Source: a virus
Taxonomy: Duplodnaviria; Heunggongvirae; Uroviricota; Caudoviricetes
Reading direction: 5' to 3' (one strand)
DNA length: 4,025 nt
Virus record (IMG/VR): IMGVR_UViG_2585427756_000014
Coordinates: 1-4,025 of that record
A program made the translations under genes and the position numbers. The notes below the pieces were generated by a model. It did not search any database and was not told where the DNA came from. It saw nothing but the letters and a program-made list of their open reading frames with translations. Positions 1 through 4,025 of this stretch are shown in pieces. Each line of letters starts with the position of its first letter. The stretch's first letter is position 1.

Positions 1-541
1 TCCCTTCGCGCTGGCTGAAGTTTTCGCGGTAAGTGATCGCCTCCTGCACTGTCTTGCAGCCATACGCTGACAGGTAAGCAAATCCACGCAGGCTTTGCGC
101 CACGCTCAGCAACTCAGTAGCTACCGCCTTGGTGTCGTGGCCTGGCACGCCGAGAATGCGCGGTTTAACGCCGAGCTGTGACTGGGCAGATAACAGGGCT
201 TTCATACCTGTTTTTTTACCTTCAGCAGTCACTGCGCCGATGATATTGGTCGTGGTTTCGTCTTCCGTTTCACCCTGCGGCACACGCACAACAATGGTCA
301 CGGGTTTTGCCTGGTCAGCGATGGCATCCAGCGAACGGGCCAGCGTACCGGACTCCCCCGCTTTACCGCTGGCAGTCAGCACATCAGTGATCAGCACGGG
401 TTTATTAAGAGGAAACATTTTTGCATCGGCATCATCGCCCGTGCAGACCATACCCACGATGGCGGTGCTCACCGTGGTAATGGATCGGGTGCCTTCGTTG
501 ATTTCAACAACGCGCACCCCGTGGTGGTAATCCTGAGCCAT
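1..541 (-). CDS. Contractile phage tail sheath protein (P2 gpFI-like), N-terminal 180 codons; partial, continues beyond window start
   Basis: Minus-strand frame from ATG at 539-541 is open to position 1. Translation begins [35 protein letters not shown]..., which closely matches my recollection of the P2 FI sheath N-terminus (MSDYHHGVQVLEINEGTR...). AGGAGG lies 9 nt upstream of the ATG. The plus-strand ORF 129-530 is antisense to it. Confidence 0.85.
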
Positions 542-617
542 AGCGGCGAACCTCCTGATTGGATTAGGCTTCGCCCTATGTTGAAGTGATTGTGCCCGAC
601 AAACAGCTAAGTGTAGT

Positions 618-635
618 TGTACAGTTATTCACACA
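618..635 (-). promoter_or_regulatory. TGT-N12-ACA dyad, candidate P2-type late-promoter activator (Ogr/Delta-family) binding site upstream of the sheath gene
   Basis: The sequence tgtgtgaataactgtaca (read on the sheath coding strand) has its centre about 85 bp upstream of the sheath ATG. The motif and its position in the intergenic region ahead of the FI-like gene fit P2/P4 late promoters. No strong -10 or -35 was identified. Confidence 0.4.
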
Positions 636-683
636 AAATGACGGTATTTGTCTACTTGCAGGGATAATCAAAATTATGCTGAT

Positions 684-1250
684 TCAGGGGGATTCACTGC
701 TCTTATTTGCCGGAAATTTTCTATAAATGGTAGAAACGCCCACATCAAAAATCAGTGCAATACGCTGTCTTGATTCTCCGGCCTCGAGTAAACGTCCAAT
801 CTGTGCCCACTGTTCGGTGGTCAACTTAGGACGGCGTCCACCTACTCTGCCTTTGGCACGAGCTGCAGCCAGCCCTGCCCTGGTTCGTTCAACTATCAGT
901 TCGCGTTCCATTTCAGCCAGAGCCCCCATGACATGAAAAAAGAAACGGCCCATTGGGGTACTGGTATCAATACTGTCAGTCAGGCTTCGGAAATTCACAC
1001 CACGCTGGCGCAACTCTTCTATCAGCGTAACAAGATGCCGCATACTGCGACCCAGTCTGTCCAGCTTCCAGACAACCAGCGTGTCTCCTGCCGATAGTGT
1101 CCTGAGCAGTTTTTTAAGCCCCGGTCTGTCGGACTTAGTGCCACTGATTTTGTCCTCAAAAATCCGGTCACATCCCGCGCAGTTCAGTGCATTACGTTGC
1201 AAATCGGTGTTCTGGTCATTTGTTGACACGCGTACATAGCCAATAAGCAT
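684..1250 (-). CDS. Serine DNA invertase, Hin/Gin/Pin/Cin family (copy 1 of 2, identical to copy 2)
   Basis: Translation MLIGYVRVSTNDQNTDLQRNAL...DTLVVWKLDRLGRSM...MGRFFFHVMGALAEMERELIVERT...GGRRPKL...IFDVGVSTIYRKF contains the resolvase/invertase catalytic domain with the serine in the YVRVST motif and a C-terminal helix-turn-helix. The longest ORF extends to 1295 ([15 protein letters not shown]...), but the family-typical start is the MLIGY methionine at 1250, preceded by a GGGGG Shine-Dalgarno-like run. Confidence 0.9.
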   Translation of the reverse strand: MLIGYVRVSTNDQNTDLQRNALNCAGCDRIFEDKISGTKSDRPGLKKLLRTLSAGDTLVVWKLDRLGRSMRHLVTLIEELRQRGVNFRSLTDSIDTSTPMGRFFFHVMGALAEMERELIVERTRAGLAAARAKGRVGGRRPKLTTEQWAQIGRLLEAGESRQRIALIFDVGVSTIYRKFPANKSSESP

Positions 1251-1277
1251 GAGCATCCCCCTGAATAAAAACCGGAG

Positions 1278-1850
1278 ATGATGCCAGTTAGCCATTATCT
1301 CTGCATTTTCATAAACGTTGGTTTGGGAGAAGGTGCTCCAGCTATTGGCGTTCCGTTCTTCTGGCCGTCCGCCGCAATGCCAAATACTGTAATCGACAGT
1401 TGGTCCAGTATGGTGTTTTTGAAGTTCAACGGCGCGAAATTCTCTGCCACTGATTACCCTGTGCTGGCGAAAGTGTTTCCGGCGCTAGCATTACCTGACG
1501 CACGGGGTGATTTCATTCGTATCTGGGATGATGGGCGCGGGATTGATGTCGGACGTACCCTACTTTCAGGGCAATCACACACAATTATGGATCATGCACA
1601 CAATATGGAGTTGTGGACGGGGGACGGGCTTGCCGCAGGAAGTGCACGGGAGGGAGTAAACCCAGGAATACTGGCCACATACGGTGACGGGGGAATAGTT
1701 AAAACGGACGAACCCGGTCTTAAGGTGCCTTCCTCACTACGAGCTCTTAGCTCTCGTAGTGTTAAACGTTATGGTGAAATTAGTGGAAATGTAGATACAG
1801 AAACCCGTCCACGAAATATTGCATTTAACTTTCTGGTGAGGGCTAAATAA
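1278..1850 (+). CDS. Tail-fibre C-terminal variable (receptor-binding) cassette A, 190 aa; orphan, lacking the constant N-terminal shaft region
   Basis: The ORF crosses the crossover site and ends ...GNVDTETRPRNIAFNFLVRAK, resembling the C-terminal motif of Mu S / P2 H-type tail fibres. Its stop overlaps the start of the downstream chaperone gene. An in-frame stop lies 4 codons upstream of the first ATG, and that ATG sits antisense to the invertase 5' end, so no N-terminal constant domain is attached. Confidence 0.65.
   Translation: MMPVSHYLCIFINVGLGEGAPAIGVPFFWPSAAMPNTVIDSWSSMVFLKFNGAKFSATDYPVLAKVFPALALPDARGDFIRIWDDGRGIDVGRTLLSGQSHTIMDHAHNMELWTGDGLAAGSAREGVNPGILATYGDGGIVKTDEPGLKVPSSLRALSSRSVKRYGEISGNVDTETRPRNIAFNFLVRAK
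1306..1331. other. Left 26-bp crossover site, gix/hix/cix-like (invertase recombination site)
   Basis: The sequence ttttcataaacg-tt-ggtttgggagaa has two imperfect inverted 12-bp half-sites around a central dinucleotide. The right half matches my recollection of gixL in 10 of 12 positions. The site straddles the repeat/unique boundary and lies in the tail-fibre reading frame (encodes CIFINVGL). Confidence 0.55.
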
Positions 1851-2443
1851 TGAAACCTGTTTTTGATGAAAATGGGCTGGCTACAGTGCCGGGCGATATG
1901 CGTTGTTTTTATTATAATGCAGTAACGTATGAATATACCGGCTGGTCTGATGAATATATTAATACTGGCGTAAGTATACCCGCCTGTTCCACTGGTATTG
2001 ACCCGGGCGAAAACATTCCGGGAAAAGTGGCAGTATTTACGGGTAAGGGATGGAGCCATGAAGAAGACCATCGCAATGAGACCGTTTACTCAACTGAAAA
2101 TGGCGCAGCTGTTACAGTGGATTATATCGGTGCCATCAAAGACGGTTATGTCACGCTTTCACCGTTAACGCCATACGATAAATGGGATGGTGAGAAATGG
2201 GTGACGGATACCGAGGCACAGCATAGCGCCGCAGTAGAAGCGGCAGAAGCACAGCGCCAGTCGCTGATTGATGCTGCAATGGCTTCCATCAGTCTGATTC
2301 AACTGAAATTACAGGCTGGGCGGAAGCTGACGCAGCCAGAAAACACCCGACTTAACGCTGTGCTGGATTACATTGACGCGGTGACGGCAACAGATACCAG
2401 CACAGCGCCGGACGTCATCTGGCCTGAACTGCCGGAGGCGTAG
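1850..2443 (+). CDS. Tail-fibre assembly chaperone A (Tfa / Mu U / P2 G family), 197 aa
   Basis: Translation MKPVFDENGLATVPGDMRCFYYNAVTYEY...DKWDGEKWVTDTEAQ...LDYIDAVTATDTSTAPDVIWPELPEA has the N-terminal and C-terminal motifs (DTSTAPD-IEWP-like) of lambda Tfa-type assembly proteins. It is translationally coupled to cassette A. Confidence 0.85.
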   Translation: MKPVFDENGLATVPGDMRCFYYNAVTYEYTGWSDEYINTGVSIPACSTGIDPGENIPGKVAVFTGKGWSHEEDHRNETVYSTENGAAVTVDYIGAIKDGYVTLSPLTPYDKWDGEKWVTDTEAQHSAAVEAAEAQRQSLIDAAMASISLIQLKLQAGRKLTQPENTRLNAVLDYIDAVTATDTSTAPDVIWPELPEA

Positions 2444-2855
2444 GCCATTCAATATCTGGCGCACCGGAAGTATCGACCAGTTCCAGTGCGTCCAGATAAT
2501 CCAGCCACAAATTATATTGCGCCAGTTCCTCACCTTTCAGCCGGCCAATAGCCGCTTTACCAGGCCATTGTTTACTGTTCATATAATCGTTGGCCTGATT
2601 AATCAGTTGCTGCTTTTCCAGTTCGGCTGCAGCAATCTGTTCCTCATGTGTTGGTGGTGGAATTTCAGACCATGCAGGAAAACCATTTTCTCCAGCGATA
2701 CGGATTTTTCCTTTCGGCGGTAATCCGGAAAACTCAATATACACTTGCTCATCAACTTCAACAGCATCATCTGGCCATGAGTCAGCTTGAGTGTAATCCT
2801 CTTTCATCTCCAGCGGATAGAAAGAGTTTGTAGTCGCGGAATATATGTAATTCAT
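2415..2855 (-). CDS. Tail-fibre assembly chaperone B (Tfa family), 146 aa
   Basis: Translation MNYIYSATTNSFYPLEMKEDYTQ...NLWLDYLDALELVDTSGAPDIEWPTPPAVQAR carries the conserved Tfa C-terminal motif. GGAG lies about 6 nt upstream of the ATG. Its 3' end overlaps the convergent chaperone A gene by 29 bp. Confidence 0.85.
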   Translation of the reverse strand: MNYIYSATTNSFYPLEMKEDYTQADSWPDDAVEVDEQVYIEFSGLPPKGKIRIAGENGFPAWSEIPPPTHEEQIAAAELEKQQLINQANDYMNSKQWPGKAAIGRLKGEELAQYNLWLDYLDALELVDTSGAPDIEWPTPPAVQAR

Positions 2856-2876
2856 TTTTCACTCCATATAGCTAAA

Positions 2877-3269
2877 TTAACAGCCTAACGCTAAAAATGA
2901 AGCGCCGAGGCCAGGAGTACTGGCTCTGGATATAAATTTAACCGGGTCGGGACTAAAACCTGCACAGGCAATATAACCAACAGCCCCGCTATCTGGTGTG
3001 TAGTCTTGTGAGACCAAAACACGCAGACATCTGTTTGGAAATGCAATCGGGAAATGGGTTACTACATCCTGTGCAATGCCTGGTGCGCCGATTGAGCCCC
3101 ACTGAAGAATAAAACCTGATGGTAATTTTTGATATCCAGTACCTGAAACAGAAAGCGTGAAGCTACCCATATCAGGTATCTGATTCGCCCCTGTCCCTAC
3201 ATTCCTTTTAGCCGCTTTTCCCAAACCAACGTTTATGAAAATGCAGAGATAATGGCTAACTGGCATCAT
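2877..3269 (-). CDS. Tail-fibre C-terminal variable cassette B, 130 aa; orphan, lacking the constant N-terminal region
   Basis: It shares the first 17 codons ([17 protein letters not shown], encoded by the repeat and crossover site) with cassette A, then diverges completely ([15 protein letters not shown]...[17 protein letters not shown]...). It lies immediately upstream of chaperone B on the same strand. The tail-fibre tip assignment is by context and composition, not by a strong motif. Confidence 0.6.
3216..3241. other. Right 26-bp crossover site, gix/hix/cix-like
   Basis: This is the mirror image of the left site. The outer half-site is identical, and the inner half-site differs at one position (ggtttgggaAaa versus ggtttgggaGaa on the other side). 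Coordinates are +/-2 bp. Confidence 0.5.
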
Positions 3270-3296
3270 CTCCGGTTTTTATTCAGGGGGATGCTC

Positions 3297-3863
3297 ATGC
3301 TTATTGGCTATGTACGCGTGTCAACAAATGACCAGAACACCGATTTGCAACGTAATGCACTGAACTGCGCGGGATGTGACCGGATTTTTGAGGACAAAAT
3401 CAGTGGCACTAAGTCCGACAGACCGGGGCTTAAAAAACTGCTCAGGACACTATCGGCAGGAGACACGCTGGTTGTCTGGAAGCTGGACAGACTGGGTCGC
3501 AGTATGCGGCATCTTGTTACGCTGATAGAAGAGTTGCGCCAGCGTGGTGTGAATTTCCGAAGCCTGACTGACAGTATTGATACCAGTACCCCAATGGGCC
3601 GTTTCTTTTTTCATGTCATGGGGGCTCTGGCTGAAATGGAACGCGAACTGATAGTTGAACGAACCAGGGCAGGGCTGGCTGCAGCTCGTGCCAAAGGCAG
3701 AGTAGGTGGACGCCGTCCTAAGTTGACCACCGAACAGTGGGCACAGATTGGACGTTTACTCGAGGCCGGAGAATCAAGACAGCGTATTGCACTGATTTTT
3801 GATGTGGGCGTTTCTACCATTTATAGAAAATTTCCGGCAAATAAGAGCAGTGAATCCCCCTGA
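3297..3863 (+). CDS. Serine DNA invertase, Hin/Gin/Pin/Cin family (copy 2 of 2, identical to copy 1)
   Basis: Same 188-aa product as copy 1 (MLIGYVRVSTNDQ...). The longest ORF starts at 3252. This copy is on the plus strand, reading away from the invertible segment toward the sheath gene, as in P2-like prophages where the invertase occupies the slot between tail-fibre and sheath genes. Confidence 0.9.
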   Translation: MLIGYVRVSTNDQNTDLQRNALNCAGCDRIFEDKISGTKSDRPGLKKLLRTLSAGDTLVVWKLDRLGRSMRHLVTLIEELRQRGVNFRSLTDSIDTSTPMGRFFFHVMGALAEMERELIVERTRAGLAAARAKGRVGGRRPKLTTEQWAQIGRLLEAGESRQRIALIFDVGVSTIYRKFPANKSSESP

Positions 3864-3911
3864 ATCAGCATAATTTTGATTATCCCTGCAAGTAGACAAA
3901 TACCGTCATTT

Positions 3912-3929
3912 TGTGTGAATAACTGTACA
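3912..3929 (+). promoter_or_regulatory. TGT-N12-ACA dyad, candidate P2-type late-promoter activator site (mirror copy)
   Basis: The sequence tgtgtgaataactgtaca has its centre about 85 bp upstream of the sheath ATG at 4006. It lies in the pin-sheath intergenic region. Confidence 0.4.
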
Positions 3930-4005
3930 ACTACACTTAGCTGTTTGTCGGGCACAATCACTTCAACATAGGGCGAAGCCTAATCCAATCAGGAGGTTCG
4001 CCGCT

Positions 4006-4025
4006 ATGGCTCAGGATTACCACCA
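4006..4025 (+). CDS. Start of a second tail sheath (FI-like) gene copy; only the first 7 codons (MAQDYHH) fall in the window
   Basis: Identical by inverted-repeat symmetry to the first 20 nt of the minus-strand sheath gene at 522-541. AGGAGG lies 9 nt upstream. It is too short to judge on its own. Confidence 0.5.

Follow-up and report, generated by a model that had tools for sequence, protein, structure and literature searches.

An invertible tail-fibre segment of a P2-like Escherichia coli prophage, probably allelic to the P segment of e14

What kind of locus carries two predicted receptor-binding cassettes, head to head, between two copies of a DNA invertase gene, and is that layout genuine? 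The question is raised by a 4,025-nucleotide stretch of viral DNA (the window), which corresponds to nt 1–4,025 of a draft contig and differs at one base (position 1978) from JOSM01000180.1. The region very probably (probability of about 0.88) belongs to a P2-like E. coli prophage and serves it as an invertible tail-fibre segment, allelic to the P segment of e14 and acted on by a Pin-family serine invertase. The system is already known and belongs to a textbook class of switches, and the window's sequence is already on record and annotated in many E. coli genomes. None of the results obtained here is at odds with the identification as a switch. The features of the window (coordinates, strand, description) are as follows.

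1..1328, no strand: left inverted arm, the perfect reverse complement of contig positions 3219–4546 (3219–4025 inside the window)
1..540, minus: 5′ part of a P2-type tail sheath gene (MAQDYHH...), inverted copy, right at the end of the source contig
684..1250, minus: duplicate of the serine DNA invertase gene, 188 residues (MLIGYVRVSTNDQ...), in the suspected fold-back arm, identical to the copy at 3297–3863
1306..1331, plus: 26-bp hix/gix/pix-type site, TTTTCATAAACG TT GGTTTGGGAGAA, core 1318–1319, of the recombinase-side type, identical at 26 of 26 positions to the pinE-side (invertase-side) site of K-12 e14
1320..1850, plus: cassette A, variable C-terminal part of a fibre, 176 residues (GLGEGAPAIG... 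to ...NIAFNFLVRAK), StfE-type
1850..2443, plus: TfaA, predicted tail-fibre assembly chaperone of cassette A, 197 residues, TfaE-type (Caudo_TAP, 1.2e-27)
2415..2855, minus: TfaB, predicted tail-fibre assembly chaperone of cassette B, 146 residues, TfaP-type (Caudo_TAP, 8.4e-38)
2877..3227, minus: cassette B, variable C-terminal part of a fibre, 116 residues (to ...FLALGC), Gp53-like_C 'foot' domain, StfP-type
3216..3241, minus: second 26-bp site, inverted, TTTTCATAAACG TT GGTTTGGGAAAA on the minus strand, core 3228–3229
3297..3863, plus: serine DNA invertase, 188 residues, Pin/Gin family, the copy that continues into the prophage tail operon
4006..4025, plus: beginning of the tail sheath gene, truncated at the window end

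Two cassettes and their chaperones

The locus had been described in the sequence-only reading as two unrelated receptor-binding cassettes, each followed by a Tfa-type chaperone, and BLASTP and the matches to Caudo_TAP (PF02413) bear this out. The two ORFs that hold the cassettes have their first 17 residues in common, and the remainder is without similarity (BLASTP, E = 4.2). Each predicted chaperone gene lies directly downstream of its own cassette (positions 1850 and 2855), and the 3′ end of the TfaB gene overlaps that of TfaA by 29 nt. The chaperones score 97 and 129.9 bits against Caudo_TAP (cut-off 22.1) and are 38% identical over the C-terminal 72 residues only (E = 4e-11), in line with the earlier claim that a Tfa C-terminal motif is all that they have in common. 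TfaA is 63% identical to e14 TfaE and matches phrog_105 (2e-83), and TfaB is 60% identical to e14 TfaP over 102 residues and matches phrog_188 (1.8e-66). The exact TfaA protein is found in P2-like, Mu-baseplate-type and e14-like elements (the last at locus L009), in both orientations. NCBIfam returned no family for either cassette or either chaperone.

Cassette A is contained in an ORF of 190 residues (1278–1850, plus strand) that ends ETRPRNIAFNFLVRAK. It is 42% identical to e14 StfE (E = 1.7e-35), and its PHROG matches are phrog_3100 (tail fibre, 2.6e-50) and phrog_523 ('tail collar fiber protein', 1.6e-48). On the strength of sequence alignment, cassette A appears to resemble the tip of T4 gp37 (PDB id: 2XGF, E = 5e-6): it aligns to the collar region, the HxH segment and the C-terminal ...NIAFNYIVR strand, but is much shorter than gp37. 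Its score against the Pfam family Collar (PF07484), 18.6 bits, is below the curated cut-off of 24, so cassette A is similar to a gp37-type tip but is not filed in this Pfam family. T4 relies on the chaperones gp38 and gp57 and is not known to use a Tfa.

Cassette B is contained in an ORF of 130 residues (2877–3269, minus strand), residues 48–130 of which match the complete model of Gp53-like_C (PF21882; positions 1–84 of 84, E = 4.4e-15, 56.4 bits, cut-off 24.9); in the 466-residue fibre described below, this domain is C-terminal. The PHROG matches of cassette B are phrog_2557 (1e-39) and phrog_1396 (tail fibre, 1.9e-25). Its PDB matches, all at about 1e-3, are to Acinetobacter phage AP22 gp53 (PDB id: 4MTM) and R-type pyocin fibres (PA0620; PDB ids: 6CL6, 6CT8, 6CXB), which carry the same Gp53-like 'foot', although pyocin fibres are not known to be switched by inversion. 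R-pyocin and AP22 gp53-type fibres also need a Tfa-type chaperone. R2-pyocin fibre structures are the only two fold matches of the predicted model at E ≤ 0.001; the model is a medium-confidence monomer, and these matches show ~23–24% identity over the aligned structure with a TM-score of about 0.5. In the comparison with StfE and StfP that the sequence-only reading had proposed, cassette A matches StfE, and cassette B matches StfP distantly (26% identity, E = 3.4e-5), the weakest of the segment's e14 matches.

Cassette B is short and lacks the C-terminal ETRPRNIAFN motif of cassette A, which had led to the suggestion that it might be a different or novel tip type; related possibilities are that it is not a fibre part at all (e.g. 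a frameshifted remnant) or that A and B are alleles of one tip. The novelty of B did not survive the searches, given the match to the whole Gp53-like_C model above its curated cut-off, the PHROG tail-fibre matches, a predicted model nearest to the R2-pyocin fibre and 218 database relatives; the name 'gp53-like domain-containing protein' is already attached to hundreds of database clusters. Cassette B also forms the intact C-terminus of an annotated 466-residue fibre at two loci (L001 and L003), and A and B, dissimilar by BLASTP, match different families. Taken together, this group of explanations is extremely unlikely, and both the frameshifted remnant and the allele proposal are refuted by the Pfam, fold, fibre-fusion and BLASTP results. 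The anatomy and homologies of the two cassette–chaperone pairs are directly demonstrated; that the two tips bind receptors is what we infer.

Recombination sites and the invertible DNA

The sites at 1306–1331 and 3216–3241 are inverted relative to each other, identical at 25 of 26 positions and have the common core TT. Real genomes carry TTCTCGCATACC TT GGTTTGGGAGAA as the site next to the fibre gene. A 16-bp repeat, TTGGTTTGGGAGAAGG, has been reported for the e14 P segment (PMC12529663). Matches of complete genomes to the window break at 1318 and 3229, and the invertible DNA extends from core to core, 1319–3228, about 1.91 kb. The interval 1329–3218, singled out in the sequence-only reading, is exactly the unique DNA between the perfect inverted arms, but falls short of the invertible DNA at both ends.

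The invertase shares 86% of its residues with PinE and 74% with Gin. It consists of an N-terminal Resolvase domain (PF00239, 3.3e-53) and a C-terminal HTH_7 domain (PF02796, 1.4e-15), and it matches phrog_125 (DNA invertase, 2.5e-100); NCBIfam returned only sub-threshold matches for this recombinase. Complete genomes annotate it as a recombinase of 188 residues, and at one locus (L015) the invertase corresponding to 3297–3863 is followed by the sheath, tube and tape-measure genes.

Both orientations in natural genomes

In complete genomes, the gene order is V-W-J-I-H, then the segment, then the invertase, sheath and tube, and each cassette is found in frame after the ...LLAYLGLG end of the constant part of a P2-type fibre gene. 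In NZ_CP119006, cassette B is fused to H (466 residues); in NZ_CP035882, cassette A adjoins the constant part of H, which is annotated as an interrupted pseudogene. The junction of the constant part with B is present in 70 complete genomes and that with A in 73. Identical sequence occurs both ways round, with A adjoining the invertase (L003, L004) or B adjoining it (L016). Inversion in silico keeps the reading frame and results in a fibre of 466 or 526 residues, the latter being the cassette A fusion. The proposal of a tail-fibre host-range switch is thus upheld by the layout (head-to-head cassettes between inverted sites that adjoin a Pin-type invertase) and by natural genomes, in which the same segment is present both ways round with either cassette in frame with one constant fibre gene. 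The conserved frame, the two natural orientations and the break at the crossover core are directly demonstrated; that the segment also inverts in the source strain is what we infer.

The switch would operate as follows. One long fibre gene would provide a constant part of ~350 residues (P2 gpH type, ...LLAYLGLG) that runs into the 26-bp site. The invertase would cut the central TT of this site and of its inverted partner ~1.91 kb away and flip the intervening DNA. In one orientation, the fibre would end in cassette A (526 residues, T4 gp37-like tip) with TfaA directly downstream; in the other, it would end in cassette B (466 residues, gp53/R-pyocin-like foot), followed by TfaB. The unused cassette would be promoter-distal, beside the invertase, where gene callers would read it as a short ORF (190 or 130 residues) whose start lies antisense to the invertase leader. 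A population of lysogens would then release virions with two adsorption specificities.

Relation to known switches

The closest counterpart is the P segment of the K-12 cryptic prophage e14 (stfP-tfaP-tfaE-stfE, PinE), which has the same gene order and orientations as the window. All four segment proteins are homologous at the identities given above (A/StfE, TfaA/TfaE, TfaB/TfaP and B/StfP), and both the 29-nt overlap of the chaperone genes and an artefactual leader on the silent ORF recur in e14. The e14 segment is 1,797 bp long compared to 1.91 kb here, and the cassettes are diverged alleles. The two elements differ in what surrounds the segment: here, a fibre N-terminus of the P2 gpH type forms the constant part, and the tail operon that holds it is P2-like and apparently complete, whereas e14 is a lambdoid remnant.

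The Mu G segment (S/U and S′/U′; Gin) and the P1 C segment (Cin) share with this locus the constant N-terminus, two chaperone-bearing cassettes, 26-bp sites and an invertase that adjoins the segment from outside; the sequence comparison was made with Mu only. In addition to the invertase similarity, Mu U′ is 31.5% identical to TfaB over the C-terminal 73 residues. Neither S nor S′ has a BLASTP match to cassette A or B at E ≤ 0.01, so the cassettes are not Mu-type tips, and the Mu segment is longer (about 3 kb versus about 1.9 kb). In P2-like prophages of EPEC E2348/69, an invertase and inverted repeats give rise to alternative fibre C-termini (Goldberg et al. 2014, PMC4272514). One E2348/69 locus has three repeats and three C-termini compared to two here, a likeness drawn from the published description (PMC4272514).

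A suspected assembly fold-back

In the window, neither cassette is joined to a fibre gene and the recombinase and sheath flank is present on both sides, which the sequence-only reading had missed. The arms 522–1328 and 3219–4025 are identical at 807 of 807 positions, with the first mismatches exactly at 1329 and 3218. In contig JOSM01000180.1, the identity extends over 1328 of 1328 positions and the arm stops only at the contig end. The sheath 5′ part at 1–540 is the exact reverse complement of contig positions 4007–4546, and a colinear complete genome annotates it as 'phage tail sheath protein'. A single invertase outside the segment with the constant part on the opposite side, as seen in every complete genome examined, is absent here.

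The double-invertase layout is very probably an assembly fold-back at the end of a draft contig, to which we also attribute the missing one-sided arrangement. The window covers 4 kb at one end of a draft contig assembled from short reads, which would account for an invertase and sheath flank on both sides: on its way out of the segment, the assembler probably followed the path of the opposite orientation, and the contig thereby folded back on itself. The alternative is a defective prophage in which 1.3 kb or more (invertase and sheath 5′ end) is truly duplicated, in inverted orientation, on the two sides of the segment, so that neither cassette could ever be joined to a fibre gene. Such a duplication is consistent with two intact, inverted recombination sites and with the occurrence of the layout in a deposited NCBI assembly (JOSM01000180.1) as well as in the window, one base apart. 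However, both arms with the double recombinase are found in 0 of 5,426 complete E. coli genomes, and the arm remains 100% identical right up to the contig end. Moreover, the chromosome-level assembly OZ038772.1 (L003) has no mismatches to window positions 1–3229, then mismatches at 67 of the following 101 positions, from 3230 onwards, at the crossover core, and past this point it runs into the fibre gene. Each junction taken alone is the normal junction of one orientation state, as expected if an assembler given reads of a culture with mixed orientations takes a wrong turn in the assembly graph, and both orientations of e14 and P2-like prophages have been documented side by side in clonal E. 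coli cultures (PMC4272514). Many homologues of cassette B are located on segment-sized contigs of 1.8–1.9 kb, and hence draft assemblies usually break at the segment. A true duplication is therefore quite improbable.

At least two near-identical records, the window and JOSM01000180.1, show the fold-back, as would be the case for a recurrent pipeline error or for a real clade-specific rearrangement. At invertible segments, draft assemblies either fragment into contigs of segment size or fold back, and folding back creates false 'palindromic' loci with duplicated recombinases, a pattern that scans of raw contigs should flag and not call biology.

The shared leader and the silent ORFs

The 190- and 130-residue ORFs are silent-state forms and not working proteins, and their common N-terminus is not fibre sequence. 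The 17 residues had been described as encoded by the site; they are indeed all that the two ORFs share, but the 26-bp site at 1306–1331 encodes only about the last 8. The first 9 are the antisense of the recombinase leader, outside both the site and the invertible DNA, and are common to both ORFs because the window has the recombinase flank on both sides. The exact 190-residue ORF is not on record; a 189-residue form is found, in which gene callers start at the second ATG. For the silent cassette, gene callers systematically list a small protein whose N-terminus is false; this matters for any mining of 'gp53-like domain-containing proteins' and for extending the StfE2 defence claim.

That claim concerns e14, where inversion of the P segment is reported to create StfE2, a short leader plus gp53-like ORF that reduces T2 adsorption (PMC12529663). 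By analogy, the silent-side ORFs might be expressed as free receptor-binding domains and in this way mask receptors of the host. StfE2 is built of the same kind of leader and gp53-like domain (PMC12529663), the 130-residue ORF, in which Gp53-like_C covers residues 48–130, occupies the equivalent position, and K-12 stfE begins with an analogous leader. Nevertheless, the domain is only 26% identical to StfP/StfE2, and receptor specificity is therefore not transferable. Only two promoter-like sites came up in a scan of the whole window, against a chance expectation of 4.4; both lie where the chaperone genes overlap, and the stretches upstream of the silent ORFs, their leader and the invertase have none. 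The scan is uninformative about expression. GGAG is only 1–4 nt from the ATGs, the leader is fully accounted for by the antisense of the invertase 5′ end plus the site, and there is no such ATG in Mu. Expression of the silent ORFs appears unlikely. Slightly less likely again is that each flip would exchange both the fibre tip and a free-standing, StfE2-like domain masking receptors against other phages; if this were true, an intact P2-like prophage would use the switch for defence as well as for host range. Expressed silent ORFs would be compatible with the invertible tail-fibre segment and not exclusive of it.

Other sequence elements

The fibre-operon promoter was not found in the window, as expected if it is located far upstream. 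Terminator-like hairpins between each site and its invertase (1270–1289 and 3258–3277) are weak, with 3 G-C pairs among 6; the window total is not clearly above chance. An inverted repeat at 2362–2379 and 2488–2505 was rejected as a structural element; it merely reflects the common chaperone motif LDYIDA/LDYLDA on opposite strands. Hin/Gin/Cin/Pin systems have a recombinational enhancer bound by Fis, with two Fis sites spaced by about 48 bp, near the 5′ end of the invertase gene. The invertase gene of the window has no pair of strict-consensus Fis sites 46–50 bp apart. It does contain Fis-like 15-mers, strict and loose consensus mixed, centred at +29 and +78 (49 bp apart), and loose-consensus Fis-like 15-mers are found at the same positions in pinE and gin.

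Layout of the window and likeness to the e14 P segment

The window is mirror-symmetric: reverse-complementing 3219-4025 reproduces 522-1328 without a mismatch (807/807), and the boundaries 1329 and 3218 proposed in the sequence-only reading are exactly where these inverted arms first mismatch. Every ORF length and motif quoted in that reading is likewise found in the window.

Features of the window
1-540, − strand: start of a P2-type tail sheath gene, left arm
684-1250, − strand: serine recombinase (invertase), 188 aa, left arm
1306-1331: 26-bp recombination site, TTTTCATAAACG-TT-GGTTTGGGAGAA
to 1850, + strand: cassette A, a fibre-tip C-terminus, between the arms
1850-2443, + strand: TfaA, the chaperone of cassette A, between the arms
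2415-2855, − strand: TfaB, the chaperone of cassette B, between the arms
from 2877, − strand: cassette B, the alternative fibre-tip C-terminus, between the arms
3216-3241: inverted partner site, 25/26 identical to the site at 1306-1331
3297-3863, + strand: serine recombinase (invertase), 188 aa, right arm
4006 onwards, + strand: start of a P2-type tail sheath gene, right arm

The module is an allelic form of the e14 P segment, the invertible tail-fibre segment of E. coli K-12 (stfP-tfaP-tfaE-stfE, invertase PinE), within a P2-like tail operon in which V-W-J-I-H are followed by the segment, the invertase, the sheath, the tube and the tape measure. PHROGs assigns all five proteins to families of tail fibres, fibre assembly or DNA invertases (E = 1e-40 to 1e-100). 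The Mu fibre proteins S and S' match neither cassette.

Amino acid identity to e14 and Mu proteins
Invertase: 86% to PinE, 74% to Gin
Cassette A: 42% to StfE (E = 1.7e-35)
TfaA: 63% to TfaE
TfaB: 60% to TfaP; 31.5% to Mu U' over the C-terminal 73 aa of TfaB
Cassette B: 26% to StfP (E = 3e-5)

The 3' ends of the convergent chaperone genes overlap by 29 nt (2415-2443), as do tfaP and tfaE of K-12 e14 (positions 2518-2546 of locus L013). Both chaperones match Caudo_TAP and, as had been claimed, they are alike only at the C-terminal end (38% identity over the last 72 residues). An inverted repeat near the overlap (2362-2379 and 2488-2505) is their shared LDYIDA/LDYLDA motif on opposite strands.

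Recombination sites and switching

The pinE-side site of K-12 e14 is 26/26 identical to the site at 1306-1331, and the 26-bp site includes the 16-bp repeat that PMC12529663 describes in the e14 P segment. Because matches to complete genomes stop at 1318 and 3229, the central TT, the invertible DNA is 1319-3228, or ~1.91 kb.

The interpretation of the locus as a host-range switch was right in substance. When 1320-3227 is inverted in silico in the chromosome-level sequence OZ038772.1, the frame is kept: the 466-aa fibre ending in cassette B becomes a 526-aa fibre ending in cassette A, and the silent ORF, the unused cassette beside the invertase, changes from 190 to 130 aa. Both joints exist in nature. 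Searches of 5,426 complete E. coli genomes with 240-nt queries found the constant N-terminal part of the fibre joined to cassette B in 70 and to cassette A in 73. Both states are also recorded for identical sequence, one in OZ038772.1 and locus L004, the other in JNQN01000132.1. Read-pair analysis of clonal cultures shows that both orientations coexist for e14 and P2-like prophages (PMC4272514). Inversion in the source strain itself is what we infer.

Cassettes in working fibres

In complete genomes neither cassette is free-standing. A 466-aa fibre with a P2 gpH-type N-terminal domain (PF12571) ends in cassette B in NZ_CP119006 and OZ038772.1, joined at ...LLAYLGLG|(E/K)AAK(K/R)NVG. In NZ_CP035882 the constant part adjoins cassette A, and the gene is annotated as an interrupted pseudogene; the annotation (2953-4458 of this locus, L002) gives two pseudogene fragments with ~650 nt unannotated between them.

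The two cassette ORFs had been said to share only 17 residues, encoded by the site. The sharing stands, at the N-terminus, and the remainder is without similarity (BLASTP E = 4.2); the meaning given to these residues does not. Thirteen of the 17 are the antisense of the invertase leader and the outer half-site, and the joints of the two working proteins have only GLG in common, encoded by the inner half-site. Both cassettes carry the leader in the window because both window flanks are the invertase flank. The silent stfE pseudogene of K-12 begins like this leader.

Cassette A is indeed the tip type first recognized: it matches the T4 gp37 tip (2XGF) with E = 5e-6, including an HxH segment and the C-terminal NIAFN-IVR strand, and scores under the curated cut-off for Pfam Collar. 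The suggestion that cassette B is a novel tip proved wrong. It matches the whole Gp53-like_C model (PF21882; 56.4 bits, cut-off 24.9) and, by sequence, both AP22 gp53 (4MTM) and the fibres of pyocins R1 and R2. Most of its 218 database relatives bear the name 'gp53-like domain-containing protein' or 'phage tail protein'. Its AlphaFold model (24 sequences, mean pLDDT 71.6, pTM 0.61) has two fold matches at E ≤ 0.001, both R2-pyocin fibre structures (probability 1.00, TM 0.50).

The doubled invertase

The only unusual feature of the window is its doubled invertase, which we attribute, with a probability of roughly 0.85-0.9, to an assembly fold-back that doubled the invertase and sheath flank. 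Apart from one base (1978, A against C), the window coincides with positions 1-4,025 of draft contig JOSM01000180.1 (assembly GCA_000713695.1, 213,870 nt), whose inverted arm (1-1328 against 3219-4546) is identical at 1328/1328 positions and bounded only by the contig end. As the two records differ at 1978, the same fold-back is seemingly on record at least twice. OZ038772.1 matches window 1-3229 with 0 mismatches and then shows 67 mismatches in the next 101 positions, running on into the fibre gene. None of the 5,426 complete genomes covers both arms together, and a real inverted duplication around the segment is improbable. Taken singly, each junction is what one orientation state normally shows; the sole abnormality is that a single molecule carries both. 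With a mixed-orientation culture, a wrong path through the assembly graph would place both junctions on one contig.

A contig holding the segment alone is a more usual assembly failure than a fold-back. Many cassette B relatives (P0023, P0043, P0058 and others) are partial proteins on contigs of ~1.83-1.97 kb, the size of the invertible segment, so breaks at the two sites are routine in draft assemblies; indirectly, such breaks hint that the sequenced cultures were of mixed orientation. The short draft contig JNQN01000132.1 (3,229 nt) begins at window 1979, directly after the polymorphic base, which suggests that two nearly identical module copies in the sample split the assembly there.

Invertase gene and silent ORFs

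The mechanical invertase ORF is 203 aa long (684-1295, −; 3252-3863, +), and the silent-ORF leader overlaps its first 15 codons from the opposite strand. Complete genomes are annotated with the conserved start, MLIGYVRVSTNDQ (188 aa), which AGGGGGA precedes. Two Fis-like 15-mers at 3325 and 3374 (+29 and +78 of the gene; mirrored at 1222 and 1173) lie 49 bp apart, at distances of about 97 and 146 bp to the crossover core; e14 pinE and Mu gin have them at these gene positions too. The pair, consensus matches only, is a candidate recombinational enhancer and fits expectation. The stretch from the recombination site to the invertase start codon contains a weak hairpin with TTTTATT after it (3258-3277, +; mirrored at 1270-1289, −). 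It could block transcription running on from the fibre operon, or be due to chance; the window has 8 terminator-like sites where 4.2 are expected, and half of the 8 occur twice because of the arms.

According to PMC12529663, StfE2 arises when the e14 P segment inverts; it consists of a leader joined to a gp53-like domain and is reported to block adsorption of phage T2. Its positional counterpart is the 130-aa ORF of the window, but the two domains are only 26% identical, and a promoter scan of the window found no promoter-like site upstream of this ORF. A StfE2-like role would be an unlikely add-on to the ORF rather than its function.

Tail backgrounds of the module

The window is a known system in known, already annotated sequence, and the biological interest of the locus is low. 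Prophages with a Mu-type baseplate and an e14-like element likewise carry the exact 197-aa TfaA, with both orientations represented, so that at least three different tail backgrounds share this invertible module; this spread is the well-known horizontal movement of such modules. In five loci (L006, L007, L008, L010 and L011) TfaA accompanies A-type and B-type cassettes behind Mu-type baseplate genes (Gp45-Gp48), with fibres of 273 and 213 aa, and in the e14-like element (L009) it lies beside an HNH (mcrA-like) gene.
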